From the NCBI GenBank assembly GCA_964437465.1, contig CAYTGI010000005.1, positions 5,203 through 69,202 on the forward strand: a stretch of DNA of 64,000 bases. The letters run 5' to 3'. The position numbers were made by a program, and so were the translations under genes. The stretch comes from an uncultured Candidatus Saccharibacteria bacterium. GTDB lineage: Bacteria; Patescibacteriota; Dojkabacteria; J137. Shown here one piece after another: positions 10,689 through 62,910 of the stretch; position 1 is the stretch's first letter; every line of letters begins with the position of its first letter. The notes beneath the pieces were generated by a model. It saw only the letters and a list, made by a program, of their open reading frames with translations, did not search any database and had not been told where the DNA came from.

Positions 10689-11705
10689 ATGGAACAAAAT
10701 CCAAACATGGAACAACAAAATCAACCTCAAATGGAGGATAATTCTCAAAAAAATAAACAGATGCTCACAGTTGGTGCTGGAATTGCAATTTTAGTAGCAG
10801 TTTTCGCTGCAATAATGGTTGCTACAAGTCCAAATGGGGACAACACTAATGATACTCCTAATCCAACTGATGATAACGAAGTAGTTAGAGATAACGATCT
10901 CGATGAAGATGATACTATGGATCCTAGCGATAGTATGCTAATCGAAGACGAAGAACCAATGGCGGGGGCAACTTTTGAACCTATGGCTATGGCTTCATTA
11001 GTTGACGTGACTCCAGAAGGAGGAAATGCTAGCGGTACTGCTTACTACACTGTAGAAAATGGTCAATATATGCTTTATGCAGAATTTATGAACCTGCCAC
11101 CTCTTGAAGATGGATATTTTTATGAAGGATGGGTTGTAAGACAAGATCCTTTTGAATTTATTAGTACAGGTGAGATTTATGAGCTCGCTGGAGTTCAAGT
11201 AAACGAATTTGAATCAAACACTGATTATTCAGACTTTGGAACATATATTCTAACTCTTGAACCTGATGATGGTGACCCTGCTCCTGCTGATCATATCGTT
11301 GAAGGAGCTTTTGAGATGTTGGATTTAGAAAGGGATAACGCACCAGTTCAAGAATCCCCTCCTGCAGCAATGGAATCTCCACCTGCAAACTCAGGACCTG
11401 GAGCATATGCTGAATACAACGAAAGCTTATTAGCAAATGCTAATTCTGGAGATGTTGTTCTTTTCTTTAAAGCTGATTGGTGTCCTTCTTGTAATGTGCT
11501 GGATGCAGATATTACAGCAAACTTAAGTGATATCCCAAATGATGTAACTATCCTAGATGTTGATTACGATGATAATACTGATCTGAGAGAGAAATATAAT
11601 GTAAGAACACAACATACTATGGTACAGGTTGATGCTGAAGGTAATGAGATAAAAACTTGGATAGGAAGCTTTAGTCTAGATGATATTTTATCTGAAATAG
11701 TTTAA
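10689..11705 (+). CDS. Membrane-anchored, acidic, extracytoplasmic thioredoxin-like protein (CxxC)
   Basis: N-terminal TM helix, acidic linker, and a C-terminal VVLFFKADWCPSCN thioredoxin fold. Confidence 0.6.
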   Translation: MEQNPNMEQQNQPQMEDNSQKNKQMLTVGAGIAILVAVFAAIMVATSPNGDNTNDTPNPTDDNEVVRDNDLDEDDTMDPSDSMLIEDEEPMAGATFEPMAMASLVDVTPEGGNASGTAYYTVENGQYMLYAEFMNLPPLEDGYFYEGWVVRQDPFEFISTGEIYELAGVQVNEFESNTDYSDFGTYILTLEPDDGDPAPADHIVEGAFEMLDLERDNAPVQESPPAAMESPPANSGPGAYAEYNESLLANANSGDVVLFFKADWCPSCNVLDADITANLSDIPNDVTILDVDYDDNTDLREKYNVRTQHTMVQVDAEGNEIKTWIGSFSLDDILSEIV

Positions 11706-12439
11706 TGACTTTTATAGTCGTATCTTTTATCGCAGGTGTGCTAACAGTCTTAGCACCCTGCGTTTTTCCTTTATTACCAGTAATTATTGGTAATTCAGTC
11801 AGTGATCAAAATAAGAAAAGGCCTTTTATTATTATTGGTTCTTTAGTTTTCTTTATTATTCTCTTTACAGTCTTAATCAATTTTGGAGAGGGGGTACTCA
11901 GAATTCCAGATTCCACAATAAGAATTATTTCTGGAGGAATATTGATTCTATTTGGACTTACTACTCTATTTCCTAAACAGTGGACAATTTTGTCTTACAA
12001 ATTAGGATTTTCGACTAAAAGTGATAAGCTACTTCACGAATCTTCACAGAAGAAAGGGATAATGGGAGATATACTAACAGGAGCCGCTTTAGGACCTGTT
12101 TTTACAAGCTGTAGTCCAACTTACTTAGTGATTTTAGGATTAGCATTAGGAGAGTCAGATCAATTAAGAGCACTACTTTATCTAACTTCGTACGTTATTG
12201 GGTTAGGATTCATTCTTGTTCTTATTGCTTTAGGAGGTCAAAGGGTTGTAAAAAGATTAAAATGGGCTACAAATCCAGAAAGCACTTTCAAGAAAGTAAT
12301 TGGGGCAGTATTCATTATTGTAGGAATATTCATTATCTTTAGAATAGAAAAAGAAATTGAAGAGTTATTACTTCAGGTTCCTTTTATCGAAAATCTTTAC
12401 TCAATAGAGGCGGATATAGTCAACCAAACACTAGAATAA
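11705..12439 (+). CDS. ccdA: CcdA/DsbD-family thiol:disulfide transmembrane electron transporter
   Basis: VLAPCVFPLLPVIIG motif with ~6 TM helices, adjacent to the thioredoxin-like partner. Confidence 0.75.
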   Translation: MTFIVVSFIAGVLTVLAPCVFPLLPVIIGNSVSDQNKKRPFIIIGSLVFFIILFTVLINFGEGVLRIPDSTIRIISGGILILFGLTTLFPKQWTILSYKLGFSTKSDKLLHESSQKKGIMGDILTGAALGPVFTSCSPTYLVILGLALGESDQLRALLYLTSYVIGLGFILVLIALGGQRVVKRLKWATNPESTFKKVIGAVFIIVGIFIIFRIEKEIEELLLQVPFIENLYSIEADIVNQTLE

Positions 12440-14548: not shown

Positions 14549-15616
14549 ATGGAAATAATAAAGGAAAGTGATGAGAATGTAGTTAAAAAAGTTGTAAAAG
14601 TTCTTAAAAGTGGAGGGCTAGTTGTTTATCCAACTGAAACTGCTTACGGAGTTGGAGTTGATGCTACTAATAAAGATGCTGTTGGTAAACTTCTTGAATA
14701 TAAGAAAAGACCTCAAGGAAAAGCTATTTCCGTTGGAATGAATGATGAAAAAATGGCATCAGAATATGTAGAGATAAATAAGACCGCTAAAAATATCTAT
14801 AAAGAATTTCTTCCAGGACCTGTTACTGTTATCTCAAAATCAAAAGGAAAAGTTGATGCAAGATTAGAATCTGAGAAGGGTACGCTAGGTATAAGAATAC
14901 CTGATAGAAAATCAATACTGGAGATAATAGAAAAATTTAATAAACCAATAACTACTACCTCAGCTAACTCAGCTTCAAAAAAGACACCCTACTCTGTTCA
15001 AGATGTTTTAGATACCTTGAGCCAGAAACAAAAGAAGATGATAGATTTAATTATTGATGGTGGTGAACTTCCCAAAAGATTAACCTCTACTGTCATTGAT
15101 ACAACTACAGATGAATTAAAAACATATAGGCAAGGTCAGGCTAAACTTGGGAATAAAAAAGCGATTGATACCTGTAAATCCAATTCAGAACAAGAAACTA
15201 TTCTTCTTGGAGAAAAATTTATGGGAGAAAATAGGAAATATTTAAAGGAGGGTGCTGTAATTTTCTTATTAAGAGGTGATCTGGGGGCCGGGAAAACCCA
15301 TTTTACTAAGGGAATTGCTAAAGCATTAGGAATTGAGAGGAATATAAAGTCCCCTACGTATACTTATGTTGAAGAATATAATATCCCCTCTTCTAGCAAA
15401 AAGGGAATGTTTTATCATATTGACGCGTGGAAAGTTGAAACTAAAGAAGATTTACAGGCTTTTGGGTTCGAAAACTGGTTGAAGGAGGGAAATGTACTAG
15501 CAATTGAATGGCCTGAGATTTTAGAGAATTTAGGTCAAGAATTTCCAAATGCAAAGATAATAGACTTAGATTTTGAAGTAAATGGTGAGAACAATAGGCT
15601 AATTTCAGAGTATTAG
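14549..15616 (+). CDS. Fused TsaC(YrdC)-TsaE(YjeE) t6A biosynthesis protein
   Basis: N-terminal YrdC (VVYPTETAYGVGVDATN, KRPQGKAISV) and C-terminal TsaE (GDLGAGKTHFTKGIAKALGI...SPTYTYVEEY). Confidence 0.8.
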   Translation: MEIIKESDENVVKKVVKVLKSGGLVVYPTETAYGVGVDATNKDAVGKLLEYKKRPQGKAISVGMNDEKMASEYVEINKTAKNIYKEFLPGPVTVISKSKGKVDARLESEKGTLGIRIPDRKSILEIIEKFNKPITTTSANSASKKTPYSVQDVLDTLSQKQKKMIDLIIDGGELPKRLTSTVIDTTTDELKTYRQGQAKLGNKKAIDTCKSNSEQETILLGEKFMGENRKYLKEGAVIFLLRGDLGAGKTHFTKGIAKALGIERNIKSPTYTYVEEYNIPSSSKKGMFYHIDAWKVETKEDLQAFGFENWLKEGNVLAIEWPEILENLGQEFPNAKIIDLDFEVNGENNRLISEY

Positions 15617-16863
15617 TTTCCAATATATCTTTGTCGTGCTTGTTCAAACTCAGAATTATCTTGACCTTCTACAGAGCTGAATGTGTCAACCTTTTGAACA
15701 TTATTATCCCTTACATCAATTTCATAAACCTTTATCCATTTTTCTGATTCAATCTCTGACTCTGTATAGAAATACTGATAGGTAATTGTACTTTGTCCGA
15801 ATTTAAGTCCTGATTGAGGTGAGATACAAAATGTTTGATCTTTATTTAAGCAATACGAGTTAAAGTTCGCAACAATTTCTTCACTATCAACATGAAAGAT
15901 ATTACAGTCAGCCTCAGTTTCAAACTCAGATTCAGGAATACAATCACCTCGTATTCTAAATCTTCCATCATTACTTATTAAATCAGTATCCATCCTAGCT
16001 TGTTCAATCTCCTCTTCTGAGAGAAGCTTTCCGCTTTCAATTATTTTTTTGGCTAAACTAAAATCAAATCCTGTATTTATCTCAACTTGCATCTCATCAT
16101 CACTTATAACTAGATCAGCCTCAGAATTACATTCGTCTGATTCCTCATAATTTACTGAAACAATAGCATATAAATTCTCTTCAGATAACTTGTAGAAATA
16201 AATGTATGATTTGTTTTCTTCAAAAAATTCAGAAGGAAATTCAGAATCATTCGGGCATTCAGAAGTGATGATACTTTCTTTCTTAACTGGATTAGATAGA
16301 GTTTCCCCATCAAAAGCAATATCAGGAAGCTCTTCGGAAATCTCAGCATCATTCATATTCGAAGTTAATAAACTCAGATTTTCTATATAAGCAAAGGCTA
16401 AGTAACTAAAACCATCATTACCAAGGTCATATTCAAGGATTGTGTCTGAACTGATACTACTTAAAAATGGTGATTGTGTATTATTTAAAGAAGATTGAAG
16501 TACCTGCTTTCCTTCAGGATATTGGAATTCTAGCTTTAGTTCAGCATTGGTGAAAGTGTTTACTAGGTCTATGTCAGATTCTTCAAAAGGAGGAATTTCA
16601 ATAAATTCTTCTACTTCTTCACATAGCTCTTCAGTACATACCACTCCCTCCTCTGTACATTCACATTCATTACATAGATCTTCTGATTGGAACTTATCTC
16701 CAACTGAGTAGTTAAAATCATTATACTCACATACTTGTTGATCTTTTTGTATATCGGTACTTGATCTAAAGAAAACTAAGCCAATTCCAACAAAAGCTAT
16801 TATGAGAGTAATTCCTCCTAAGATGATTACTTCTTTGTTTGGTTTTTCTTTAAAATTTTTCAT
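15613..16863 (-). CDS. Membrane-anchored acidic protein with a VWC-like 6-Cys module
   Basis: TM anchor then CEYNDFNYSVGDKFQSEDLCNECECTEEGVVCTEELC; paralogous to the ORFs at 19285-21254. Confidence 0.5.
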   Translation of the reverse strand: MKNFKEKPNKEVIILGGITLIIAFVGIGLVFFRSSTDIQKDQQVCEYNDFNYSVGDKFQSEDLCNECECTEEGVVCTEELCEEVEEFIEIPPFEESDIDLVNTFTNAELKLEFQYPEGKQVLQSSLNNTQSPFLSSISSDTILEYDLGNDGFSYLAFAYIENLSLLTSNMNDAEISEELPDIAFDGETLSNPVKKESIITSECPNDSEFPSEFFEENKSYIYFYKLSEENLYAIVSVNYEESDECNSEADLVISDDEMQVEINTGFDFSLAKKIIESGKLLSEEEIEQARMDTDLISNDGRFRIRGDCIPESEFETEADCNIFHVDSEEIVANFNSYCLNKDQTFCISPQSGLKFGQSTITYQYFYTESEIESEKWIKVYEIDVRDNNVQKVDTFSSVEGQDNSEFEQARQRYIGN

Positions 16864-16941
16864 AAATCCATCTAGAAGATAATACTAGATTTTAGAAAAA
16901 TTTAGAAGAAAGGGAGAACTAAATCTCCCTTTGCTCTGGTA

Positions 16942-19194
16942 TTAATCAAATTTAATACTTTGTATTATTTGATCACATTCTGAGTAGTTATTATTGTTAG
17001 AAGAACAAGAAGCTACTAGTAACTTGTTTGAATCGTTTAAGTATCTAAAACTAGATTCAGCACAATCATTTTCCCTTGGAGCAACAATAGCTGGACAGTT
17101 GTTATCTAAGTAAACTTTATCTGTGTAGAAAACTGAATTTGTATCATTAAAGCTTACTCGATATAATTCTCCTACATTATCAATTTCTCCTATTAAAACA
17201 TAATCAGCAACTATATTTGGGTATGCCTCATAAGGAATTCCAATATCTAAAGTACTGTTCTCAGTACTAATTGTAATTCCATCAAGGTAAGTAGAATTTT
17301 CTACCACATTAAATCCGCTTGGAACAGAGAGATTATAATATTTTAACATAGCCCCAAGTGAATCTACAAAATCTTCAGTAGAAATAGTATAGGTTGTGCC
17401 ATAAGAAATTGGCTCGCCACTTAAATATCTCAAACTATTTAAAATCTCAATGACTGCTTCAAGATTTAATTCATCTACTCCTCTAACACTTACAGTACCA
17501 ACATTAACCTCAATTCCTCCAAAAATTCTTCCATTACCTTCACATAAACTAATATCTGAGTATATCTGTTGATTAACGTTGATTGGTTTTTGAGTACCAT
17601 TACATCGTCCGTCATTAGCTCTATTTGTAACAAAAAATGACAGACCATCCCCAGCAAAAGTTAGATTACTTCCTCCTTCATCTCCTGTCCCTTGAGTCTC
17701 ACAAGACCAGTTTTCAGGGATTGAGAATCCAATACCAAGAACAGAATCGTTACAAACTTTGGTAGCCTTTTCAACTTCTCCAATAGCTTCTATACTATTG
17801 AAAAATTCGATAGCCTCTTGATTATCATTTAAGAATGTATCGATCTCAATAACTTTATTTCCATATTGAAATAAATATTTATTAGGGAAGAAATCGGCTA
17901 TTCCAACAATACCTAACTTTGTAACATTTGTACCAAAAAGAGTAATCTCTTCTTGGGCGGTTATTCCATAGTTAGCTATACCTGTTGGTTGCTCAGCATA
18001 AATCCTCTCAAGCTCACTTATTCTATTTTGAACAGCTCCGTTACTATATGTAACTAGTACAAGAGACTCATCTACACAACCAAGTCCACATGGAAACCCA
18101 ACAAATCTTTCAGGAGTATAGAAAATTGTCAATGAATTACCATTCTCAAACTCGTTTTCTTGTATAACAAAGAATTTATTTTCAGTTGTAAATTGATCCT
18201 CCCCAGTTATAAATTCAATACCTTCATAGCTATCTTGTTTTGGTAAATTAAAGCTAATACCGTATTCTTCATAGGTGAATTTTTCAAAGGAAGTATTTAT
18301 TTCATTATCTTCATCCTGTTCTTGAACAATAGGGGTTGGCTCAGGTTCTGGGGCAGGCTGATTGTTATTAACAGCAACAGCACCAATGCCAATTCCAGCA
18401 CTTGCAAGTAAAATAGAACTACCAGCTATAATTTTAGCTGTTGTTGTGGCTAGTAAACCTCCACTAGCAGAGGCTGTAGCAACAGAACTTCCAGAAGAAG
18501 CTCCAATAGCGGCACCTGCAGCAGCACCAGTTAAATTTGTCATATTTGTTAAAGTAACACCTAAAGTAGATCCAACAGCTGAAGCAATAGCAGCCGAGCT
18601 CGAAGCGGTCATTGCATAAGCAGGTTGGACAGAAACACCTAATATTCCAGCTAGAATAATAGGTATAGAAACAGTTTTTAAAGCTAGAGATTTTTCTTCT
18701 CTAGAGACTGACAATTTAAGATCTTCAATCCCTCTATAAAATCTTTTCTTAACAGAATCAACACCCATTTCAACAATTGAAGCTATTTCATTAAAGCTCA
18801 TTTCATCCCAGATTCTCATAATAATAATATCTGAGGTCACTTCATCCATATCTTTTAATTTTTCTTCAATGTATTCAATTGTTAACCCATTCACCACTTC
18901 ATCTTCGAATGAGCTCATGCTCTTCTCAACCTCTTCCTCGAAATTTTCTGTATGAGTAGTATCTTTCGTGCTTTTTTTAGTTTGTTGGTTATAAATCATA
19001 TTTCGACTTACTTTAAAGAGCCAAGCTCTTTTGTTTTCAATAAAATCAAATTCCTCATTTTCAAATAAAGCAATAAACGCTTCAGATGCAATATCTTGAG
19101 CTTCTTCATTATTTCCAAGCCGAAACTTACAAAATCTGAAAATTTCAGGTGAATGCTCTTTATATACTTTTTCGAAAACTTGTTCTTTGTTCAT
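16942..19194 (-). CDS. ECF sigma factor fused through TM / low-complexity segment(s) to a large C-terminal domain
   Basis: Sigma70 region 2 (FRFCKFRLGNNEEAQDIASEAF) and region 4 (IIIMRIWDEMSFNEIASIVEMGVDSVKKRF), then a hydrophobic, Ala/Gly/Ser-rich segment and a ~480-aa domain. Confidence 0.7.
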   Translation of the reverse strand: MNKEQVFEKVYKEHSPEIFRFCKFRLGNNEEAQDIASEAFIALFENEEFDFIENKRAWLFKVSRNMIYNQQTKKSTKDTTHTENFEEEVEKSMSSFEDEVVNGLTIEYIEEKLKDMDEVTSDIIIMRIWDEMSFNEIASIVEMGVDSVKKRFYRGIEDLKLSVSREEKSLALKTVSIPIILAGILGVSVQPAYAMTASSSAAIASAVGSTLGVTLTNMTNLTGAAAGAAIGASSGSSVATASASGGLLATTTAKIIAGSSILLASAGIGIGAVAVNNNQPAPEPEPTPIVQEQDEDNEINTSFEKFTYEEYGISFNLPKQDSYEGIEFITGEDQFTTENKFFVIQENEFENGNSLTIFYTPERFVGFPCGLGCVDESLVLVTYSNGAVQNRISELERIYAEQPTGIANYGITAQEEITLFGTNVTKLGIVGIADFFPNKYLFQYGNKVIEIDTFLNDNQEAIEFFNSIEAIGEVEKATKVCNDSVLGIGFSIPENWSCETQGTGDEGGSNLTFAGDGLSFFVTNRANDGRCNGTQKPINVNQQIYSDISLCEGNGRIFGGIEVNVGTVSVRGVDELNLEAVIEILNSLRYLSGEPISYGTTYTISTEDFVDSLGAMLKYYNLSVPSGFNVVENSTYLDGITISTENSTLDIGIPYEAYPNIVADYVLIGEIDNVGELYRVSFNDTNSVFYTDKVYLDNNCPAIVAPRENDCAESSFRYLNDSNKLLVASCSSNNNNYSECDQIIQSIKFD

Positions 19195-19284
19195 TTATCT
19201 ATAAGTCAAAATAAAATAAAAAAAGTGACAAAAATATAAAAAAGGCCATCAATAAAGATAGCCTTAAATATTTGTAAAATTTTA

Positions 19285-19596
19285 CTATCTTCTACTTCTT
19301 TCCTGTCTTTCTAGTGAATCAATAATTCCTTGTACTGCACCGTCATCGATAACTTGATCGCACATTAATTCTGTACACAAAACTTCTCCATTAGCACAAA
19401 CACACTGGTTACATGAATCACCTGCAGGGAAATTATTTCCAGTTTTATACATTGCTCCATTATATTGACATGTATTATTACCCCTTTCTAAAAAGCCTTC
19501 ACTATCAATAACCATAAATCCTAGAGCAAGAGCTAATATAACCGCAAAAGTTGTAATTACAGCCATAATTAGCATTGGCGAACTTGGTTTTTTCAT
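19285..19596 (-). CDS. Small membrane-anchored VWC-like cysteine-module protein
   Basis: CQYNGAMYKTGNNFPAGDSCNQCVCANGEVLCTELMC. Confidence 0.5.
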   Translation of the reverse strand: MKKPSSPMLIMAVITTFAVILALALGFMVIDSEGFLERGNNTCQYNGAMYKTGNNFPAGDSCNQCVCANGEVLCTELMCDQVIDDGAVQGIIDSLERQERSRR

Positions 19597-19614
19597 TTAG
19601 TTAAGAATAATAAA

Positions 19615-20400
19615 TTAAAATGTCATTCTAGAGATAATTTCGTCAGCCTCATTCATATTAATTTCGCTATCTGCTGACCCTGAAATCTCAATATATCCTC
19701 TATCAACTCCTCCCTCAGTTAAATATCCAAGTTCGGAAAGTATTAAGCTTGTCTCTAGGCAGCCATCAGAAGCTTGAGCTGAGTTCTCATTAACAGACAG
19801 ATATTGATAATCAGGATTGTCGCTTGTAAGTATTCTGGATATATCATCAGTAATATCTGCTCTACTTTCAATCTCACAGCTAAATCCAAAAACACTTGAA
19901 GGAGCTGAAGGTATTACAGCATTCATTGTTAATTCTGTATCTTTTTCTATGTGGCTCAGAACGTGTAATTCTTCATTATCGCTAAGATCAGAAGTTAATT
20001 CCCATATACAATTATTGTATGAAAAAGTAAACTCTGGGAGTATAGTGCTTTCATATTGAATGTCATTACACTCTGTTTCATCATCAAAAAATTCACTAGT
20101 TTCGTTAGGTGGCAAGGTATTTTCATCATTATCTACTAAGTAAGAGTCATTTCCTTCTGCTTTACAATCTATTTCGGTACAAGCAACATCACCATCAGAA
20201 CAAGTACACGTATTGCATCCATCCCCTGCATTAAAACTTTCACTCGAATCGTACATTACACCATTATATTGGCATGAAGAAATAGGATTTGGTTTTAAGG
20301 CATCTTGGCTTTGTAGAATGTAGTAACCTAAAACAAGACTAATAATTACAAAGAATCCAGCGATAAGAGAGACAATTGTTAGTTGTGTTTGTTTATTCAT
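19615..20400 (-). CDS. Membrane-anchored VWC-like module + acidic domain protein
   Basis: CQYNGVMYDSSESFNAGDGCNTCTCSDGDVACTEIDC. Confidence 0.5.
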   Translation of the reverse strand: MNKQTQLTIVSLIAGFFVIISLVLGYYILQSQDALKPNPISSCQYNGVMYDSSESFNAGDGCNTCTCSDGDVACTEIDCKAEGNDSYLVDNDENTLPPNETSEFFDDETECNDIQYESTILPEFTFSYNNCIWELTSDLSDNEELHVLSHIEKDTELTMNAVIPSAPSSVFGFSCEIESRADITDDISRILTSDNPDYQYLSVNENSAQASDGCLETSLILSELGYLTEGGVDRGYIEISGSADSEINMNEADEIISRMTF

Positions 20401-20402
20401 AA

Positions 20403-21254
20403 TTAAATTTTTGTGATAGTATTTAAAATTCCGAATTGTTTTAGAATATCATCAGTTTGAAGTTGTTGTTCAATAGCTTCTTCAAGAGAGGCAGCATCAG
20501 GTATGTTACCGAAGCAATCGTTATATCCTCCATCAATTCTGATAATTGCTACAATATCTTCATAAAGAGGATAATGGTATAAATTAGTTATAAAATTCCT
20601 ATACCCTTGATTAGGGTCCTCAAAGTCACATGGAACTCCTTCTCTGTTAGATCCTTTTATTGGAATTATTTCTTGATTATCAACTTCTACTATGGGTAAT
20701 TCCTCAGTTATGTCAGTTATCTTATATGCTCTTGTAAAAACATCTTCTTCAGTAAAAATATCCTCAGTTATTGAAATTTCTAAGCTGTACTTTACGTAAG
20801 TATCTCCATCTTCAGTCAGGTCAGTTTTAATCAGCCTTAGGAAATCCTCCTTCGGTTCTCCTTCAATCTCAAAGTCATCAGGATAAAAAAAACTAAAGCC
20901 TAATTCCTCCGATTCAAAGTAATTATTAAAAGTAAAAATGCTGCTTCCAATTGTGATTTCTTTTTCTTCTATAACCCCATTATGTTCCACTAAATAGCTG
21001 TCATTTTCTTCACTTTTACAATCAATCTCAGTACATATAACCTCACCATCTGCACAAACGCATTGATTACATCCATCCGCAGCGTTGAAACTCTCACTAG
21101 ACTCGTAAGTAACTCCATTATACTGACATGACGTAGGTCCATTATTTGTCTGCATGTCTTGCTCAATAACATTAAACCCAGCAAAAAGGGCTACACCGAT
21201 TGCAATTGTAACTATTACAACTACTGCGATTGTTGGTTTATCATATTTTGACAT
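20403..21254 (-). CDS. Membrane-anchored VWC-like module + acidic domain protein
   Basis: CQYNGVTYESSESFNAADGCNQCVCADGEVICTEIDC. Confidence 0.5.
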   Translation of the reverse strand: MSKYDKPTIAVVVIVTIAIGVALFAGFNVIEQDMQTNNGPTSCQYNGVTYESSESFNAADGCNQCVCADGEVICTEIDCKSEENDSYLVEHNGVIEEKEITIGSSIFTFNNYFESEELGFSFFYPDDFEIEGEPKEDFLRLIKTDLTEDGDTYVKYSLEISITEDIFTEEDVFTRAYKITDITEELPIVEVDNQEIIPIKGSNREGVPCDFEDPNQGYRNFITNLYHYPLYEDIVAIIRIDGGYNDCFGNIPDAASLEEAIEQQLQTDDILKQFGILNTITKI

Positions 21255-21342
21255 CTAGTTTATTCTTGATATCTACAGAATAATGAAAATGTAAAGTGAA
21301 ATCAATTCATTATATGTTTATAATGGTTGATATTTAAAACTA

Positions 21343-22623
21343 GTGCATTGGTTCATGAGATCAGGATTAATAATTAAAAGAAGAGAGATAATTGATAAAA
21401 ACTTTTTAAAGTATTTATATCCACTCTTTTTTATTTTATTTGCTGACAGTGTACTAACATATGCTTTTCCTATCATTGTTTTAGAAGAATTAGAATCTTC
21501 AACTACATTGGGTTTAATCATGGCCGCATCGTCTGTAATAGGGATTGTAATGGATTTGGTAATACCTAAGCTTTTTGCAAGATCAACTTGGCGTGAATTC
21601 TTGATGATAAGTATAGTATTGAGTATTCTTTATCCAGTCTTTATTTACTTAGGAACACTAAGTGCTCCAATACTATTTCTTTTATTAGGTTCAGTTGTCT
21701 GGGGTATTTACTTTGAGTTTTTATCATTTTCAGAGCAAGGTTACATAGTTGACGAAGAGCCTAAATCTGATTTTACAGGTGACTGGAGTGTGATTTACGT
21801 GTTATGGCAGGGAGGCTCATTATTAAGCCCTATCATTGGAGCTTTTCTTTTATCAATGAGTATACTGCACTTTTCTAGTGCAGTTGTTTCAATTCAATCT
21901 ATAGCATTAGTAATTTCTTATTTAGCGCTTGTAAAGTATGGGTCCAAAAAGAAAAAAAGAAAAATAATTAGAAGTCATTTTAGGGCGAGTTTGAAATTTA
22001 TTAATGAAGTAACGGTTTTTAGGCTTCTAAGTTCGAAAGTTTTTTCAGTTTTTTTAGTTAGTATTTTAGGAGGTATAATTCATGCATCATTTTGGACAAT
22101 TGGAGGTATTTACGGAGAGGAGCTTTTAGGAGGATCTAATAGAGGCTGGATTGTTCTTTTTATCTTTAATATGTCAATTTTATTAGGAACTACTTTCCTA
22201 ATTTACTTTCCTATTGATAAGCATAAAATGAAGATCGCTCAAGTTAGTTTGTTAATATCAACTATATTTATGATCCCAGTTTTTTTAGTTAGGGATATAA
22301 ATTTAATATTAATTTTAATTGCAGTTTTGAGTCTTTTCTCTTCCTTTGTTATTCCATTAACTAACTCCATCTTTTCTGATCTAGCAAATAGAAGCAATGA
22401 TTATGAAATTTACATTATGAGCATTTCTAGGATTGCAATATCTCTTGCTTACGTTATTGGACCTTTATTTGTTGGAATTATTGGGGATTTTTTCAACTAT
22501 GGTGAAGTTATAAGTATAACTGGGGCAATTCTTTTTCTTTTGACTATTTTTACAATCATCATTAACCCAAAGGCTATTAGGCTTCCAAGAAAAAAATTAG
22601 ATAAAATAATGATAAATCCTTGA
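21343..22623 (+). CDS. MFS transporter
   Basis: About 12 TM helices. Confidence 0.55.
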   Translation: MHWFMRSGLIIKRREIIDKNFLKYLYPLFFILFADSVLTYAFPIIVLEELESSTTLGLIMAASSVIGIVMDLVIPKLFARSTWREFLMISIVLSILYPVFIYLGTLSAPILFLLLGSVVWGIYFEFLSFSEQGYIVDEEPKSDFTGDWSVIYVLWQGGSLLSPIIGAFLLSMSILHFSSAVVSIQSIALVISYLALVKYGSKKKKRKIIRSHFRASLKFINEVTVFRLLSSKVFSVFLVSILGGIIHASFWTIGGIYGEELLGGSNRGWIVLFIFNMSILLGTTFLIYFPIDKHKMKIAQVSLLISTIFMIPVFLVRDINLILILIAVLSLFSSFVIPLTNSIFSDLANRSNDYEIYIMSISRIAISLAYVIGPLFVGIIGDFFNYGEVISITGAILFLLTIFTIIINPKAIRLPRKKLDKIMINP

Positions 22624-22654
22624 CATAGTATACCCCCTGGGGGTATATTTAGGT

Positions 22655-22909
22655 ATGGATGATTGTAAGCAATTTCAGAATCAAATAAATAGGATTAAAG
22701 GACAGATGAACGGTATAGATAATATGATTAATGAAGGAAGGAACGTTAATGATGTTGTTCAACAGATTTCGGCGGTTAGAGCTGCTCTCTCAAGACTAGC
22801 AGTTGATCTTCTTAAAAATGAATCTAGTGAGTGTTTTAATAGCTCAGAGATTAAGAATAATCAGAAAAAATTTGAAGAGTTAGTAACTAACTTTTTTAAG
22901 ATAACTTAA
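22655..22909 (+). CDS. CsoR/RcnR/FrmR-family metal/redox-sensing repressor
   Basis: NRIKGQMNGIDNMINEGRNVNDVVQQISAVRAAL with conserved Cys residues. Confidence 0.6.
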   Translation: MDDCKQFQNQINRIKGQMNGIDNMINEGRNVNDVVQQISAVRAALSRLAVDLLKNESSECFNSSEIKNNQKKFEELVTNFFKIT

Positions 22910-22926
22910 ATTTTATTATTTTCAAA

Positions 22927-23265
22927 ATGGATGACGATAAAGATTCAAAAATTGCTCACACAACTGATGCAGAATTCGATGACGCAATTGCTGAAGGGCT
23001 TACTTTAATTGATTTCTGGGCTCCATGGTGCGGACCTTGTCTAATGATTGCTCCTACTCTTGAAGAGATAGCCGAAGAGATGGAGGGAAAGTTAAATATT
23101 GTAAAGCTAAATGTTGATGATAATCCTGAAACTTCACCTAAATTTGGAGTGCAAGGAATTCCTACAATGATTTTGTTTAAAGATGGGAAATTAGTTGACC
23201 GTGTTGTTGGGGCAGTTCCTAAAGCTGCTTTAGTAGACATGATTGGGAAACATATTGAAGAGTAA
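22927..23265 (+). CDS. trxA: Thioredoxin
   Basis: WAPWCGPC motif. Confidence 0.9.
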   Translation: MDDDKDSKIAHTTDAEFDDAIAEGLTLIDFWAPWCGPCLMIAPTLEEIAEEMEGKLNIVKLNVDDNPETSPKFGVQGIPTMILFKDGKLVDRVVGAVPKAALVDMIGKHIEE

Positions 23266-23281
23266 TTATTAAAAAATAGAA

Positions 23282-24247
23282 ATGTCTGAAGAGAAGGGTT
23301 TAAAAGACAAAGTTCACGACCTGATTATTGTTGGGTCTGGTCCAGCTGGCTTAACTGCAGCTATTTATGCATCTAGAGCAAGATTAGATCCATTGCTTTT
23401 TGCTGGAGTAACATGGGGAGGTCAGTTAATGAATACAACTGAAGTTGAAAATTATCCAGGGTTTCCGGATGGTGTAGCTGGTCCTCAGTTGATGCAAGAT
23501 ATGCTTAAACAAGCAGAAAAATTTGGCACAATAATTGAATATGATAATGTAACAAAAGTAAGCATTGATGATAATGGAATTAAGAGGGTTAGGGTTAATG
23601 ATGAGGACTATAGAGCAAGATCAGTGATCTTTGCCACTGGTTCAGTGCCTAGAAAACTAGATATTCCTGGTGAAGATAAATACTACGGACAGGGAGTTTC
23701 AACCTGTGCTACTTGTGATGCTGCGTTTTATAAAGATAAGGTCGTAGCTGTTATCGGAGGTGGAGATACTGCAATGGAAGACTCTACTTTTTTAACTAGA
23801 TTTGCGAAAAAAGTGTACATTCTCCATAGAAGAGATGAGTTTAGGGCAAGTAAGATTATGGCTGAAAGAGCTTTAAAAAATGAGAAAATTGAAGTTCTTT
23901 GGAATACAGAGGTTAGAGAGGTTATTGGAGAGGATACTGTAAACAAGCTAAAGATTTACAATAATGTTGAAGATAAGGAGAGTGATCTTGAAGTTGATGG
24001 AATGTTCTTAGCTATTGGTCATGTTCCATCAACACAATTTCTGACAGATATTCTTGATTTAGATGACGAAGGTTATGTTAAAACTCACAAAGATGTTGAA
24101 ACTAACATACCGGGAGTTTTTGTTGCGGGTGAGATTCAAGACCATGTGTATAAGCAAGCTATAACTACTGCTTCAGATGGATGCAAGGCTGCATTGAAAG
24201 CTCAAAGATGGTTAGAAGGAAATGAGGAGATAAGAAATATCTGGTAA
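23282..24247 (+). CDS. trxB: Thioredoxin-disulfide reductase
   Basis: GSGPAGLTAAIYASRA, CATCDA, GGGDTA. Confidence 0.9.
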   Translation: MSEEKGLKDKVHDLIIVGSGPAGLTAAIYASRARLDPLLFAGVTWGGQLMNTTEVENYPGFPDGVAGPQLMQDMLKQAEKFGTIIEYDNVTKVSIDDNGIKRVRVNDEDYRARSVIFATGSVPRKLDIPGEDKYYGQGVSTCATCDAAFYKDKVVAVIGGGDTAMEDSTFLTRFAKKVYILHRRDEFRASKIMAERALKNEKIEVLWNTEVREVIGEDTVNKLKIYNNVEDKESDLEVDGMFLAIGHVPSTQFLTDILDLDDEGYVKTHKDVETNIPGVFVAGEIQDHVYKQAITTASDGCKAALKAQRWLEGNEEIRNIW

Positions 24248-31847: not shown

Positions 31848-33098
31848 ATGATGAAATTTAGCACGATCCTAGTAGTACTGGCACTCCTGATGCTGTCCGC
31901 TGTGAGCGTGAACGCACAGGACGACGAACCTGAATCAACACCCGCGACGGTTACCTTGGATTATTTCAGCGGCGAAAGTATCGCGCAGTCCCCGGACGGC
32001 ACGTTTGAAATCGTGGTTCACGAAGAAGGCACAGCGTTGTGGTCCGATAGCACCAATGGCAGCCTGATCACTGAAGATCTGGCTTTCGACGCGATGGTGA
32101 ACGACGCTGGGCAATTCGCTTTGCTTATTGCACACGATGAAAGCGGTGAGTTGATCACAGGCGATCTTGCCGACGTGGCGTTTGGCACTCTCTCATACGA
32201 AGAAGGTTACTTCACTCGACTCGCAATGTCGTGGAATAGCGCAATTTGTGTTGAGCAGATCGACTTCAACGCCAATCGTATTCAGCTTGAGCATGAAGAC
32301 ACTGCGGAAATCGAATGTGCCTCGCGGTTTTCCGGCGATCTGTGGTCCGATGCTTTCGACATATATGTCGCACAGTACAACGAGTCTCCGGCGACCTACC
32401 AGAGCGTGGACGAAGAATTCGTTCTCACCGAAAGCGTGACCTTCAGGACTGAAGACATGTCATTGGTTGTCAACGGAATGACATTCCAAATCATGCTGGA
32501 CGGTAGCTTCCTGCAACACATCTACGGCGTCGAAAATGGCTCATTAACAATCTGGACAACAGAAGGGGTATATACAGGACAACTCCGCGACTATGTTGAT
32601 GTTACCCAGGCTGTGTTTGAACCGGCTATGGTTTTAAGCGTGGCTGAAAACGGGTGTGCGCTCCGAATCATGGAGGCGACTGGTACTGTTATTTTACTGA
32701 GCCAACAAGGCTATAACTTCGCCGGTTGCGACGAGATTGATGCGCAAGAAGGTTTTGAACTCGCAATGAACGTGCACCCCCCGATGATTGAAACTCCTCC
32801 AACGGTACATTACGACATGTCCAATCAGACGGAAGCCTGCTGGATTCGCATCGGCATCGGCGATTCTTTGGCGATAATCGAAGAAGATCAGAACTATGAT
32901 GAGATTTTCAGCGTCATGGACTTCGAGATTCGCTCTGATCAGAACAATTCATCGTTCAGGTACCCAAGCAACCTTCCAGAAGGGTGGAACGGACTATTCA
33001 ACCAGTACACTACGGCAGGTGGGCCAGAAGACCTCATCAGCTTGAATGGTGCTTTTGAAGACCCTGAGTCAGGCACGCCCTACTGCTCGGCTGATTAA
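31848..33098 (+). CDS. GC-rich secreted acidic protein (likely horizontally acquired)
   Basis: Signal peptide MMKFSTILVVLALLMLSAVSVNAQ. GC content and codon usage are markedly higher than in the rest of the window. Confidence 0.6.
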   Translation: MMKFSTILVVLALLMLSAVSVNAQDDEPESTPATVTLDYFSGESIAQSPDGTFEIVVHEEGTALWSDSTNGSLITEDLAFDAMVNDAGQFALLIAHDESGELITGDLADVAFGTLSYEEGYFTRLAMSWNSAICVEQIDFNANRIQLEHEDTAEIECASRFSGDLWSDAFDIYVAQYNESPATYQSVDEEFVLTESVTFRTEDMSLVVNGMTFQIMLDGSFLQHIYGVENGSLTIWTTEGVYTGQLRDYVDVTQAVFEPAMVLSVAENGCALRIMEATGTVILLSQQGYNFAGCDEIDAQEGFELAMNVHPPMIETPPTVHYDMSNQTEACWIRIGIGDSLAIIEEDQNYDEIFSVMDFEIRSDQNNSSFRYPSNLPEGWNGLFNQYTTAGGPEDLISLNGAFEDPESGTPYCSAD

Positions 33099-45294: not shown

Positions 45295-48200
45295 TTTAAG
45301 ACGTACACTTTTAACGTTTATTTCGCATGCTTAGTTTTTTTACTATCAGCATCTAGTATTGAGGCTGCAAGCAATACAATAGATTTTCAAGGAAAGATAG
45401 TGAATAAAGGTGATGGAACGAATTTAGTGTCTGGAAGTCCTGCATGTGTAGTAGTTGGGGCAGATACTTGTGATTTTAGAGTAAGAGTTTACGATGCTTC
45501 TAGTGGTGGAAACTTACTTTTTGAAGAAGAACATACAAATTTAGAGATTGGAGATTACAATGGGATTTTTAATTTAAGTATTAATAGTATCTGTGCTTCT
45601 ACTCTGAGTGGTGGAGTTGATTGGGGAACAGGAGGATGTATTAGTAACGGTTGTGTAGATTTTAGTAGTACTAATGTGTATTTTGAGATAAGTTTTCACC
45701 TGCAGGAGATTCTACATACACAGAAACATTTACAAGAAAACAAATTAGCCAGACACCAAGCGCATATTATGCTGAAAGAGCGGGGAGTGTTGGTGATTTA
45801 AATGGATTTAATGAAACTGATTTTGTTCAGTTTGGTCAGGGTAGTACTCAAACAAGTACAAATACTAATGGTTTAATTAATATAACAACTACAGGTAATG
45901 TTGTTAGTCCTTTAATATTTCTTAATGAAAACTGGGCAGGTACTCCCCTACTTTTAGATTTACAGGAAGGGGGATCGACTCAATTCAGTATAGGAAATAA
46001 TGGAGTAATAACTTCTGATTCTTTAGCTGGAGGAGGGGTTCAATGTTTACAGTCAGATAACAGTGGGATAATCTCAGCTACGGGTTCAGCATGTGCGGGA
46101 AGTTCTCCCTGGACAATAGATATGAGTGACATTTACTATAACGGAGGAAATGTTGCTATTGGAACTGGAGCCCCAGGAGCCACTTTATTCCACGTTCAAG
46201 AAAATACTACAGGTTTACCAACATTTGGAAGCGACACTTCCTCTGCCTTTTCAAGTATTAATGACACGTATTTAGCTATAATTTCGGGAGCGGCGAATAT
46301 ATCTGGAATTAATTTTGGAGACAATAGTGATGAAAATCCTGGAATAATAGCGTATAACAATGCTTCAGATTCATTTGTGTTTACAACTGGAACATCAACA
46401 GCATTGACAATAGCTTCTGGGGGAGGACTTACTGCTAATAGTTTGGCTGGAGGTGGAACACAATGCTTGCAAGTAGATAATGCTGGATTAATTGCTGGAA
46501 GCGGTTCAGGATGTGCAACAAGTCTATGGACAGATGGAGGAACAACTACCTACTTAACTTCAACAACAGATGATGTTGCATTTGGAGGAACTGGAGGCTC
46601 TTCTCCATTCTTCTTTGATGTAAGTGATCCGTCGATAAATATTAATAGCACACAGGTTTTATACCTTCCAGATCAAACTACATTTGCGGGATCTTTGATT
46701 ATTGGTAATGGTGGGACTAGTTTGAGTACCTCCACTAATTCTACAGGTGTTGGTATTGGAGCTTTAACTAGCCTTTCATCTGGATCAAGTAACACAGCTG
46801 TTGGAACAAATTCATTGACATTAAACTCTACTGGAGCAACTAATGTTGCTATAGGAGCATCAGCTCTGTCTGGAATTGCTGATGGTTTTGCAAATGTTGC
46901 AGTAGGTACATTTTCAATGGAATTAAAGTCATCAGGAAATCACAATATAGCAATTGGAGGGCAATCGATGTATAGGAGTTTTTCAGGTGCAAATAATATA
47001 GCAGTTGGATCCTCCGCACTATATAATAATAGTTCAGATTCAAATGTGGGTATTGGATATAATGCAGGCTATAGAGTTAATGGAGATGATAATATTATTA
47101 TTGGAGATAATGCAGGAGCAGGTATTGGGTCATCGACAACTACGTACTCAATAAGTAATAACGTCTTGGTTGGGACAAGGGCAGGTCAGATAATGGGTAC
47201 TAATGCTAACAATAATATTTTAATTGGACATCAAGCAGGTAATAATTTATCTATTGGAGCTAACAATATTGTAATTGGGTATGACATCGATGCACCAAGC
47301 TCTTCAGGCTCAAATAGAATGAGTATTGGGAATATAATCTATGCAACAGGAGTTGATGGCACAGGGACAACAGTAAGTACAGGAAATCTTGGAATTGGGA
47401 TTGCAAATCCAGATAGTAATACTGAACTTCATATATACGATCCAGGAAACACAATACTGGGTATACAATCTGGGGCTCAGTCTATATGGGGTATAGAATC
47501 CTTATCAGCTTCTAATGCCATGAGGATTGGTAATTTAAATGGGGCTGTCCTAAACAATCATGTATATATAACTTCAGGAGGTAATGTTGGGATTGGGGAT
47601 GTTCCTTTAGATAAGCTACATGTATTTGGAGATGCTAGGGTTGGAACAGGAACAACTGGTTGTATTAAAGATGCAGATGGCACTACTATAGCAGGTACAT
47701 GTAGCTCTGATTTGAGATTAAAGGAAGAAATTAGAGGATTTGATTCAATATTAGAAAGATATGTACAATTAGAACCTGTATTTTATAAATGGCGATCTGA
47801 AGAATTCCCTGAATTACATCTTGGAACTAGTGAAATTAGTGGGTTAATTGCACAGAATGTTGAACAATTATTTCCAGAACTAGTTGCATATGATGAAGAT
47901 GGATTCAGACAAATTAATTTTTCAGCGATAGACTTTTATACAATTCAAGCAATAAAAGAACAGCAAGAACAAATTGATAGCTTACAGGCTCAACTGGCAA
48001 GTATTAGTAGTAATCCACCTGGATCACAACCATTAGAACATGCAATTTTAAACAATCTAACAATTAGAGAAAACTTGAACATAGAAGGAAAATTGAATCT
48101 TGCTGATGACTCAGCTGATGTAATAGAAATTCCTGCAGGAGATGTTGAGTTTTCTTATACATTTAACACCGCTTACTCCTCTACTCCTATTGTATCTATA

Positions 48201-48341
48201 ACTCCAATTTCTGAAGAGGTGCTTAGTGAAGGTATCGTTTATATTGTAACTAATTCTGATCAAAACGGTTTTACTATAAAATTAAATCAACCAGCATCAG
48301 TTAATATCTCTTTCAACTGGACTGCTTTTGGGGACCTTTAA
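45295..48341 (+). CDS. Giant tail-fibre-like surface protein, paralog A (frameshifted at the T4 run 45694-45697; no canonical start)
   Basis: The N-terminal domain is paralogous to 48421-53124 (GKIVNKGDGTN...CDFRVRVYDASSGGN). Reading T5 at 45694-45697 joins it to ORF 46122-48341. Contains Gly-rich N-x-A-I/V-G repeats and a C-terminal S74-like intramolecular chaperone motif, SDLRLKEEI...GLIAQNVE. Confidence 0.5.
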
Positions 48342-62664: not shown

Positions 62665-62910
62665 GTTCAAAGTATAAAAAGTACTTATGTACTTAAGTAC
62701 CTAGGTACTTGTGTACTATATATTCTTTGAGGACTACTCAATGGCAGTGGTACCACCTCTATTTCCCGATGAAGAATCGGAACACTTATTACAGCTATTT
62801 CGGGCATACCCGGAGGATTTTACTACTTTCGGTTCTTTCCTCAGCACACCTGTGACAAGCAAGTGTATTGCTTAACAGATTATATCTTAGTTTTTTACTA
62901 CGTGCCAGAA

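Follow-up and report, generated by a model that had tools for sequence, protein, structure and literature searches.

Several ECF sigma factors that are fused to transmembrane and extracytoplasmic parts have been described. In IutY of Pseudomonas putida (ECF243; PMC5411451, PMC8999054), the N-terminal ECF sigma domain is joined through a FecR-type anti-sigma domain, which follows sigma-4, to a membrane span, and the C-terminus is an extracytoplasmic (FecR periplasmic) domain. Its partner is a TonB-dependent transducer in the outer membrane, and its activity requires proteolytic release by Prc and RseP. The ECF48/52/53 proteins of Actinobacteria (e.g. SCO4117; PMC5826349, PMC8999054) have a long C-terminal extension in which one or two TM helices are combined with an outer domain and its Pro-rich linker; they contain a zinc-finger (ZAS-like, H-x3-C-x2-C) anti-sigma segment and a carbohydrate-binding domain. 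Proteolytic activation has been proposed for them, and a release like that of IutY is predicted (PMC8999054). In ECF263, the C-terminal extension has five or seven TM helices (PMC7826278). In the RsiV/SigV and RsiP/SigP pairs of Bacillus, cleavage acts on an anti-sigma factor encoded apart from the sigma factor, in which a signal-anchor-like helix and a small-x-small site (-3/-1) are followed by a conserved, amphipathic protecting segment; the site-1 cut, which sets off the release of the ECF sigma factor, is made by signal peptidase (PMC6066255, PMC8844934).

The locus described here lies in a 64-kb stretch of DNA (the window) from a CPR bacterium, and one of its five co-oriented genes, SIG, encodes another such fusion (Table 1). 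The positions of the genes agree with those of the first-pass annotation, and the gaps between them are indeed short: 2 nt (A/B), 18 nt (B/C), 90 nt (C/SIG) and 78 nt (SIG/D). The statement in that annotation that the arrangement is not a described system was too strong, as TM/extracytoplasmic ECF fusions are on record in IutY, ECF48/52/53 and ECF263 (PMC8999054, PMC7826278). Its term 'cell-surface signalling', in the strict sense of a TonB-dependent transducer acting with FecR and FecI, does not apply; no TonB-dependent receptor gene was found among the annotated neighbours in the window or among the called genes of related loci.

Table 1. Features of the SIG locus (window coordinates; residue numbers refer to the protein named).
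Feature	Position (strand)	Length or residues	Description
Region 5' of gene A	21255-21342 (-)		divergent from MFS gene at 21343; sigma-70-like promoter candidates for A-B-C
Gene A	20403-21254 (-)	283 aa	signal anchor, N-in (~residues 9-35); 6-Cys module C43-C79
A, acidic ectodomain		~95-283	module type alpha; 2 Cys
Gene B	19615-20400 (-)	261 aa	signal anchor, 6-Cys module, acidic ectodomain (4 Cys)
Gene C	19285-19596 (-)	103 aa	minimal paralog: signal anchor, 6-Cys module, 24-aa tail
Hairpin 3' of C	19242-19265 (-)		terminator-like (terminator scan); 9-pair stem, 6-nt loop, T run
SIG promoter (predicted)	19201-19230 (-)		ECF type, TGTCAC-N17-GACTTAT; ends 6 nt before ATG
SIG	16942-19194 (-)	750 aa	ECF sigma fused to membrane block and outer domain
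SIG, ECF sigma domain	18700-19194 (-)	1-165	sigma-2 and sigma-4, without sigma-3 (Pfam, NCBIfam)
SIG, membrane block	18355-18699 (-)	166-280	conserved (alignment, hydropathy, insertion-energy estimates)
SIG, hydrophobic helix 1		~174-190	in membrane block
SIG, P-A-Y-A	18613-18624 (-)	191-194	invariant; directly after helix 1
SIG, segment 2		197-218	conserved, weakly hydrophobic; then variable Ala/Ser/Gly spacer
SIG, TM3		255-275	strong TM helix, preceded by invariant K254
SIG, predicted ectodomain	16945-18354 (-)	281-750	acidic, 10 Cys, pI 4.05
SIG, ectodomain modules		~285-470; ~471-598; ~596-750	alpha; beta; gamma (three unrelated types)
Hairpin 3' of SIG	16909-16932 (-)		terminator-like; 9-bp stem AAAGGGAGA/UCUCCCUUU; T-rich tract a few bases further downstream
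Gene D	15613-16863 (-)	416 aa	signal anchor, divergent 6-Cys module C45-C81, acidic ectodomain (6 Cys)

The N-terminus of SIG is, by its profile matches, a genuine ECF (group 4) sigma factor. It scores 63.7 bits on TIGR02937 (sigma70-ECF; cut-off 42.9) and matches PF04542 (Sigma70_r2) with E = 1.2e-9 and PF08281 (Sigma70_r4_2) with E = 1.6e-5 (24.9 bits, just below the cut-off of 25.7); the closest solved structure is that of B. subtilis SigW (5wuq, E = 2e-14). No sigma-3 family occurs among the Pfam and NCBIfam matches, and about 30 residues separate sigma-2 from sigma-4. The fusion of this domain through a TM/low-complexity stretch (170-277) to a large C-terminal domain (470 aa), as proposed from the first reading of the sequence, was borne out. 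About a dozen members of the SIG family are known to us, all in Dojkabacteria-like MAGs with two or three paralogs per genome. Among 10-11 of them, the sigma and membrane parts (residues 1-281) have a mean column identity of 61%, and P191, Y193, A194 and K254 are invariant; beyond TM3 the proteins can barely be aligned. The 79 residues from 175 to 253 carry no charge. Segment 2 is not amphipathic (muH of 0.2 or less) and its hydrophobic stretch is missing from P0006, and P0027 has T-Y-A at the P-A-Y-A position. The AF2 model of SIG, which places low-confidence helices at 177-188, 200-218 and 248-264, is unusable (pLDDT 36.9).

SIG shares with IutY the order of sigma domain, membrane span and outer domain, but the IutY-type (ECF243) assignment was rejected: no FecR family appears among the Pfam matches of SIG at E up to 1, and sigma-4, which ends near residue 160, is separated by only about 12 residues from the first hydrophobic helix. 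Proteolytic release, which IutY requires, is presumed for SIG. With ECF48/52/53 SIG has in common the long C-terminal extension, the Pro-rich outer linker and the outer domain, but membership was rejected here as well. No zinc-finger match was obtained, C22 is the sole Cys before residue 369, and neither Cys nor His occurs between residues 23 and 368; the charge-free membrane block and the orphan outer modules set SIG further apart. ECF263 was rejected on the count of hydrophobic segments, of which there are at most three (170-190, 197-218, 255-275). SIG differs from the known sigma/anti-sigma hybrids in having no anti-sigma domain. Like RsiV and RsiP, SIG has a signal-anchor-like helix and a candidate small-x-small site followed by a conserved segment. 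However, the sigma factor is itself the membrane protein in SIG, its cleavage is presumed, and segment 2 is not amphipathic, so that the analogy with the RsiV switch fails on this last point.

Residues 281-750 are very probably extracytoplasmic, because the linker that follows TM3 is acidic and Pro-rich, the invariant Lys ahead of TM3 obeys the positive-inside rule, the domain has 10 Cys and a pI of 4.05, and its modules are shared with surface proteins. The chain might cross the membrane once (TM3 only) or three times, and either topology puts this domain outside. It is a near-orphan, with 3 matches among 1.84 billion representative proteins and weak matches of module alpha to PsbP_2 (PF18933). 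Profile-profile comparison found no similarity between the alpha, beta and gamma types. One module type follows the signal anchor and the cystine module in A (107-280) and in L009_401 (95-280), and P0002 and P0004, two sigma paralogs, carry the same type directly after TM3 (E values as low as 1e-22); the ectodomain of D resembles those of A, L009_401 and P0002. The genes flanking the locus are 65-77% identical to those of L005, where SIG residues 281-600 have no counterpart; these residues are 53% identical to the sigma fusion of L009, a more distant genome than L005. The ectodomains of the sigma fusions are therefore mosaics of swapped modules, which they share with the Cys-module neighbours.

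The predicted SIG promoter belongs to a family motif, TTGTC(A/C)C or TGTGAC, N17, G(T/A)C(T/A)TAT, which is present upstream of all ten family genes examined, at two different kinds of locus, and scores 36-43 bits with the position weight matrix (PWM). GTC is found in the putative -10 element of nine of these sites, and the putative -35 element lacks AAC. AAC is typical of the -35 element in most ECF promoters, and CGT or GTC of the -10 element. The distance of 6 nt between the promoter and the ATG suggests a leaderless mRNA. The PWM gives no second match of 12 bits or more anywhere in the 64-kb window. With a threshold of 14 bits, the scan of six related loci added a single weak site, of 16 bits, in L010. 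The search for ECF promoters advised in the first-pass annotation thus yielded a motif upstream of SIG, consistent with a signalling sigma factor, but none (at 12 bits or more) upstream of the Cys-module genes or D, so nothing places these in the sigma regulon. In the window, the motif scan found no candidate regulon member besides the sigma gene itself.

The five genes had been read as one cluster. Both long gaps, however, contain a terminator-like hairpin, and A-B-C, SIG and D are therefore not one operon but probably three transcription units. The hairpin downstream of C folds with -16 kcal/mol (z = -4.2) and that downstream of SIG with -17.2 kcal/mol (z = -2.8), and in each case none of 200 shuffled sequences folds as well; the second was missed by the simple terminator scan because its T run is not immediately adjacent. 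Upstream of A, the promoter scan located TTTAAA-18-TATAAT at 21338-21309, and AATTGATTTCA is common to this region and the corresponding region of L005, with a variant in L009.

A, B, C and D are paralogs, as had been suspected. They have in common an N-terminal hydrophobic anchor and the module C-x18-C-x2-C-x-C-x6-C-x4-C, and their BLAST similarities (A-B 1e-28, A-C 1e-24, C-D 4e-15) are far beyond chance. They would be type-II-anchored surface proteins with the cystine module close to the membrane. The acidic domain said to follow the module is present in A, B and D (pI ~4.05), but C has the short tail alone. The VWC-like character of the module holds for A, B and C, which score 30.5-31.2 bits on PF00093, above the gathering cut-off of 27.6, but D stays below it (18.4 bits), and the domain is a half one. 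The module covers about positions 1-39 of the 57 of the model, i.e. subdomain 1, including the first VWC motif, C2-x-x-C3-x-C4 (here C62-x2-C65-x-C67). A full VWC domain was rejected: the module has six Cys, as opposed to ten in VWC, and CC-x-x-C of subdomain 2 (C8-C9-x-x-C10) is absent from it. It has the small, two-sheet, disulfide-stabilised beta architecture of the fibronectin type I (FnI) fold. The module is thus VWC subdomain 1 with an FnI-like fold and a pacifastin-like Cys pattern; by sequence and fold together VWC and FnI match best, ahead of pacifastin. It differs from FnI, which has four Cys, and from chordin-like VWC domains also in its bacterial host and in being anchored directly to the membrane.

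These observations are best explained, with a probability of about 55%, if SIG is a lineage-specific (Candidatus Dojkabacteria), autoregulated sigma/sensor hybrid that is released by proteolysis, and its neighbours are separately transcribed surface proteins. Its complete sigma domain would be followed, beyond the membrane block, by a modular outer domain that contains disulfide bonds and diversifies fast. Tethering to the membrane would hold the sigma domain inactive. A signal sensed at the outer domain would then cause proteolytic release, the first cut being made most likely at P-A-Y-A, a signal-peptidase-I-like site at the outer end of helix 1, and the second, intramembrane cut following it. 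The freed sigma factor would transcribe from TTGTC(A/C)C-N17-G(T/A)C(T/A)TAT promoters, that of its own gene included, giving positive autoregulation, probably through a leaderless mRNA. With TM3 as the only span, P-A-Y-A would lie in the cytoplasm, where signal peptidase could not cut it. Neither a gene for a site-2 protease nor one for signal peptidase is present in the 64-kb window. A, B, C and D, neighbours of SIG at a hypervariable surface-protein locus, would share one pool of outer modules with the sigma fusions.

A functional link between SIG and its Cys-module neighbours is possible, and they might even be working partners in a single multi-component sensing device, as the first-pass annotation proposed with its 'ligand-like partners', although we regard this as rather unlikely. 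The cystine module, most simply that of C, could bind the juxtamembrane loop or the ectodomain of SIG and shield the first cleavage site, or the proteins could act as co-receptors or decoys that pair with SIG through the ectodomain modules they have in common; in animals, VWC and FnI modules bind proteins. The pairing is found again, in syntenic position, in no fewer than four further Dojkabacteria-like genomes. Cys-module genes lie upstream of the sigma fusion in the window, L005, L009, L086 and probably L007, adjoining it except in L086, and in two genomes the gene next to the fusion encodes a C-like minimal protein. These genomes are close relatives, however, so that synteny alone shows no functional link. 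Moreover, in L086 an unrelated 316-aa gene intervenes, the type-2 sigma paralogs (L006, L008, L010) have no Cys-module neighbours, and in L085 TM-plus-module proteins are located away from any sigma gene. The hairpin between the genes and the different, sigma-70-like promoter of the Cys-module genes also argue against a joint device.

Of similar, low likelihood is that what an epibiotic CPR bacterium has here is simply a hypervariable island of surface proteins or adhesins, with SIG as an unrelated regulator retained by descent; modules would then be shared because neighbouring genes recombine, without a common function. The near-orphan, mosaic ectodomains in a conserved syntenic frame, the independent promoters and terminators, and the variation between genomes, which have between one and four Cys-module genes and either one or two sigma fusions, agree with this. 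But the variable modules occur in the sigma fusions too, which thereby belong to the changing surface repertoire rather than just adjoining it, and this view would not explain why the membrane block and the promoter of the sigma genes are so strictly conserved.

It is improbable that uncut SIG stays in the membrane and recruits RNA polymerase to nearby DNA in the manner of ToxR or CadC, switched on by a conformational change or oligomerisation of its outer domain. One-component regulators that bind DNA from the membrane are known, the cells of CPR bacteria are very small, no anti-sigma domain is there to hold the sigma factor off, and the tether between sigma-4 and the helix is short. The same 12 residues would be sterically demanding, though, for a sigma factor, which has to sit deep inside the RNA polymerase holoenzyme, and the invariant P-A-Y-A is most simply a cleavage site. 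All characterised membrane-fused ECF sigma factors are thought to need proteolytic release (PMC8999054). An extended form of this idea, equally hard to credit, makes SIG, with its sigma domain joined directly to a three-helix membrane block and an exchangeable outer module, a one-protein transmembrane transcription switch that never leaves the membrane, is tuned by heterotypic pairing with its Cys-module neighbours and is retargeted by exchange of outer modules; if so, modules passed between genes and lineages would redirect sensing, for example to host-cell surfaces.

That the modules are surface-displayed pacifastin-type serine-protease inhibitors, guarding for example the surface proteins and SIG against host or environmental proteases, is very doubtful: C-N-x-C-x-C-x2-G-x3-C-T-x3-C fits the pacifastin signature, C1-x(9-12)-C2-N-x-C3-x-C4-x(2-3)-G-x(3-6)-C5-T-x3-C6 with a variable reactive site after C5-T, Pacifastin_I (PF05375) matches with E = 5e-6 to 2e-4 and PDB profiles of the SGPI and PMP inhibitors with E = 0.08-1, and 'pacifastin inhibitor LCMII' is the automatic name of one metagenomic homolog, but every Pacifastin_I score (21.6-26.5) falls short of the gathering cut-off of 27.9, the C1-C2 spacing of 18 departs from the signature in spite of the exact fit of C2-C6, the P1 equivalent after C5-T, a variable position in canonical inhibitors, is a nearly invariant Glu, and VWC and FnI match better.

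The position of D is filled in this genome only; L005, L009 and L007 have no counterpart of it 3' of their sigma genes. The L005 ortholog of C (P0014, 102 aa, 53% identity) immediately precedes the sigma fusion there, and B has an ortholog-like relative in L086_263, with 33% identity over the full length.

SIG, the 750-residue product of the gene between C and D, is an ECF sigma factor that lacks an anti-sigma domain and continues into a conserved, charge-free membrane block, followed by orphan ectodomain modules that can be swapped. Its sigma domain is complete, matching Sigma70_r2 and Sigma70_r4_2 and scoring 63.7 bits with TIGR02937 (cut-off 42.9), and the nearest solved structure is that of B. 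subtilis SigW. After the sigma domain come, in turn, a hydrophobic block of low complexity (residues 166-280) and an acidic region of 470 residues containing 10 cysteines. Conservation within the family differs sharply along the alignment: it is seen in the sigma domain and the membrane block, and the sequences past the strong transmembrane helix can barely be aligned. The block consists, in this order, of hydrophobic helix 1, an invariant P-A-Y-A motif (residues 191-194), the conserved, weakly hydrophobic segment 'SSAAIATAVGSTLGFTLS', a variable Ala/Ser/Gly spacer, an invariant lysine and the strong transmembrane helix. Residues 175-253 contain no charged residue. As only about 12 residues separate sigma-4 from the first hydrophobic helix, and neither cysteine nor histidine occurs between residues 23 and 368, there is no room for a class-I or zinc-binding anti-sigma domain.

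Judged from the sequence, residues 281-750 would be located outside the cell. The invariant lysine precedes the strong transmembrane helix and an acidic, proline-rich linker follows it, in keeping with the positive-inside rule; the region is rich in cysteine, with a pI of 4.05; and the same type of module is found past the signal anchor and cystine module of A, D and a 401-residue protein of the related locus L009, as well as past the last transmembrane helix of the sigma paralogs P0002 and P0004 (E values down to 1e-22). An outer location implies an odd number of membrane spans. By crude sums of insertion energy, helix 1 and segment 2 are similarly marginal and the last helix is strong; three spans or one span are possible. 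The homologous protein P0006 lacks hydrophobic segment 2. If the chain spans the membrane three times, P-A-Y-A would be positioned at the outer end of an N-in helix and would have the form of a signal peptidase I site, with proline at -4 and alanine at -3 and -1. An AlphaFold2 model of full-length SIG, built on a 10-sequence alignment, had a mean pLDDT of 36.9 and was unusable.

These properties can be combined into a description of SIG as an autoregulated hybrid of sigma factor and sensor, which is inactive when tethered to the membrane and is activated by proteolytic release. We put the probability of this reading at about 0.55, with high confidence in the architecture and lower confidence in the release steps. 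Tethering would hold the sigma domain inactive, and proteolytic release would then activate it; in the three-span topology, the cut might be made at P-A-Y-A. Release has precedents. Prc and RseP release IutY, which joins a sigma factor and its anti-sigma in one protein (PMC8999054, PMC5411451), the ECF48/52/53 fusions are predicted to be released (PMC8999054, PMC5826349), and signal peptidase is the site-1 protease of RsiV and RsiP (PMC6066255, PMC8844934). The switch of RsiV is not copied, because the segment after P-A-Y-A is not amphipathic; its hydrophobic moment of 0.2 or less led us to reject an RsiV-like protecting helix. The release steps compete with the reading that the sigma domain is active while still tethered; the 64 kb of the window contain no site-2 protease or signal peptidase gene.

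SIG would work like a sigma/anti-sigma hybrid, yet it belongs to none of the described fused groups. It has no FecR domain, unlike IutY/ECF243, no zinc finger, unlike ECF48/52/53, and at most three hydrophobic segments, which sets it apart from ECF263 (PMC7826278). It extends the range of ECF fusions by a type that has no anti-sigma domain, a charge-free membrane block under strict conservation and a motif resembling a signal peptidase site. Such an architecture offers a minimal model for tether-and-release control.

The five minus-strand open reading frames were found where the first-pass annotation had placed them, with gaps of 2, 18, 90 and 78 nt. They are probably not transcribed as one unit: both long gaps contain terminator-like hairpins, and the most economical reading of the sequence is that A-B-C, SIG and D form three transcription units.

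Features of the cluster and of the surrounding window
Feature	Coordinates	Strand	Remarks
RskA-thioredoxin protein	10689-12439	plus	membrane-anchored
TsaC/Sua5-TsaE fusion	14549-15616	plus	convergent with D, stops overlap by 4 nt
Gene D	15613-16863	minus	
Hairpin after SIG	16909-16932		terminator-like, 9 bp, z = -2.8
SIG	16942-19194	minus	
Hairpin after C	19242-19265		terminator-like, 9 pairs and T run, z = -4.2
Gene C	19285-19596	minus	
Gene B	19615-20400	minus	
Gene A	20403-21254	minus	
Redox/metal block	21343-24247	plus	divergent from A
Orphan protein	31848-33098	plus	416 aa
Peptidase_S74 protein	46122-48341	plus	739 aa
Peptidase_S74 protein	48421-53124	plus	1567 aa
Class I aminoacyl-tRNA synthetase	59296-62670	minus	1124 aa

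Directly past the hairpin after C is the sequence TGTCAC-N17-GACTTAT, which ends 6 nt before the SIG start codon. The corresponding family motif, TTGTC(A/C)C or TGTGAC, N17, G(T/A)C(T/A)TAT, precedes each of the ten family genes examined, whether the gene belongs to the syntenic locus or to an unrelated second locus close to prmC and obg. At the syntenic locus it is only 4-7 nt from the ATG, which suggests that the mRNAs are leaderless. The motif is ECF-like in its -10 GTC and in its spacing, and its -35 element lacks the AAC that the usual ECF -35 carries. With a weight matrix built from eight sites, all nine sites in the scanned sequences score 36-43 bits; the rest of the 64-kb window has no site of 12 bits or more, and six related loci gave one weak second site at 14 bits or above (16 bits, in L010). 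The regulon search of the window and related loci thus returned the sigma genes themselves only. The sigma gene would be positively autoregulated. In related genomes the sequences upstream of the Cys-module operons appear sigma-70-like with extended -10 elements, and nothing in the scanned DNA would place A-D in the SIG regulon. In complete Dojkabacteria genomes, the regulon can be sought directly with this motif.

The family is small. A search of 5.8 billion clustered proteins gave about 10 close relatives, the named ones being from Candidatus Dojkabacteria, and a scan of 185,579 species, with one genome per species, found the family in three genomes with two or three copies each; one more metagenome contig has two copies in tandem. 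Many matches in other phyla were obtained in a wider search, and those inspected were ordinary ECF sigma factors of 150-200 residues, except for two distant fusions of similar layout on short contigs (P0028 and P0031). The family is confined to a lineage of the candidate phyla radiation (CPR). Tandem pairs occur in some relatives (L086, 8001-12020; L006, 374-3960); the promoter motif is repeated for each gene, and hairpin-like inverted repeats are found upstream of the downstream genes. The fusion of L010 is split into three open reading frames, probably as a pseudogene or through a sequencing frameshift.

SIG appears beside membrane-anchored proteins that share its ectodomain modules and also have a cystine module of animal type, and A-D might be its true partners. 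The same gene frame is found in L005/L003, L009/L001 and L086 and, within the limits of its truncated contig, in L007: thioredoxin reductase, thioredoxin, CsoR-like repressor, MFS transporter, a variable block of one to four Cys-module genes with one or two sigma fusions, and the convergent TsaC-TsaE fusion. The D position is occupied in this window only. At the second locus, the sigma paralogs are flanked by other membrane proteins and not by Cys-module proteins, and an unrelated contig encodes a protein with a transmembrane helix and a module without any sigma gene in the vicinity. The association is real within the Dojkabacteria-like lineage and not obligatory; among such close relatives, simple inheritance would look the same. 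The TsaC/Sua5-TsaE gene adjoins the cluster in every related locus. The redox/metal block of the window (MFS transporter, CsoR-type metal-sensing repressor, thioredoxin and thioredoxin reductase) is kept in the related loci that reach that side (L001/L009, L003/L005, L086).

When SIG 281-750 was compared with 1.84 billion representative proteins by phmmer, only SIG itself, P0002 and P0027 were returned. Local comparisons distinguish at least three types of ectodomain module, shuffled among genes. Type alpha, which starts with 'F-x-S-x-E-L-G-x-x-F-x-Y-P', is found in A, B, D, SIG 285-470 and as the first module of several paralogs; beta is SIG 471-598; gamma (SIG 596-750) is common to P0002, P0005, P0027 and a gene upstream of the sigma gene in L007. 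The idea that the three are repeats of one fold was rejected, as hhalign gave their profiles a probability of 3% or less; they have no detectable relationship to one another. PsbP_2 is the sole Pfam family recurring for alpha (3 of 11 members, best E = 2e-5, under the cut-off); a structure model did not confirm this fold, and the alpha profile had no significant match among PDB sequences. In L005, the closest relative of the window, the flanking housekeeping genes are 65-77% identical to those of the window, and SIG 281-600 lacks a counterpart; the same region is nevertheless 53% identical to the sigma protein of the more distant L009 genome, which indicates module swapping. Such exchange is also what would be seen if the locus were only a variable surface-protein island, a less likely reading that does not account for the conserved membrane block and promoter of the sigma genes. 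Little is known of how CPR bacteria, which have very few regulators, perceive hosts or surroundings. The locus suggests that in one lineage the outside is sensed by a surface protein that contains a sigma factor and whose outer part is exchangeable and fast-evolving.

A-D are paralogs (pairwise E values of 1e-28 for A-B, 1e-24 for A-C and 4e-15 for C-D). Each begins with a short, positively charged N-terminus and a single strongly hydrophobic helix, and the module C-x18-C-x2-C-x-C-x6-C-x4-C follows about 10-15 residues later. The acidic domain that the first-pass annotation described after the module is present in A, B and D (pI about 4.05, with 2, 4 and 6 cysteines, respectively) and is missing from C, which has a 24-residue tail only. 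Pfam VWC matches A, B and C above the gathering cut-off, over the first 39 of 57 model positions only; Pacifastin_I, TILa and an FnI model match more weakly. In the PDB, the module profile finds the collagen IIA VWC domain 5nir (E = 1.5e-4), with only subdomain 1 aligned, and pacifastin inhibitors at E = 0.08-1. From the partial VWC match and the alignment to subdomain 1, the module is a six-Cys 'half VWC' of FnI-like fold without VWC subdomain 2. The pattern from C2 to C6 fits the pacifastin signature, but the reading of the modules as canonical protease inhibitors is argued against by a C1-C2 spacing of 18 (9-12 in pacifastins), by Pacifastin_I scores that are all under the cut-off and by a nearly invariant glutamate at the P1-equivalent position. 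Related modules are repeated in tandem in metagenomic lipoproteins of high-GC bacteria and occur in an oyster 'kielin/chordin-like' protein, so the module is not unique to the Dojkabacteria-like lineage. Searches of the literature on Dojkabacteria sigma factors and on VWC or pacifastin modules in bacteria gave nothing relevant. The locus documents an animal-type cystine module (VWC subdomain 1, FnI-like) as a membrane-proximal stalk in bacteria.

About 4 kb from this Cys-rich surface-protein cluster, a protein in which the C-terminal domain of anti-sigma-K RskA (PF10099, 37.5 bits) is joined to a thioredoxin domain (WCPSC) is encoded next to a CcdA/DsbD_TM gene. The pair is syntenic in related genomes, and its products look like an extracytoplasmic thiol-disulfide pair.

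The window has a low GC content (about 33%), and the closest relatives of its proteins are from Candidatus Dojkabacteria (CPR) metagenome-assembled genomes. An Rfam scan at the gathering threshold and a tRNA scan of the 64 kb found no Rfam family, tRNA or rRNA. Peptidase_S74 is the intramolecular chaperone of endosialidases and tail fibers; its presence in each of two adjacent large proteins suggests fiber-like surface or phage-derived proteins. Residues 670-813 of the class I aminoacyl-tRNA synthetase give a weak Ser_hydrolase-like match (22.3 bits, cut-off 22) and may be an inserted domain. The orphan protein, which has an N-terminal signal peptide and no Pfam match, is encoded in the window's sole GC-rich stretch (GC 0.43, compared with about 0.33).
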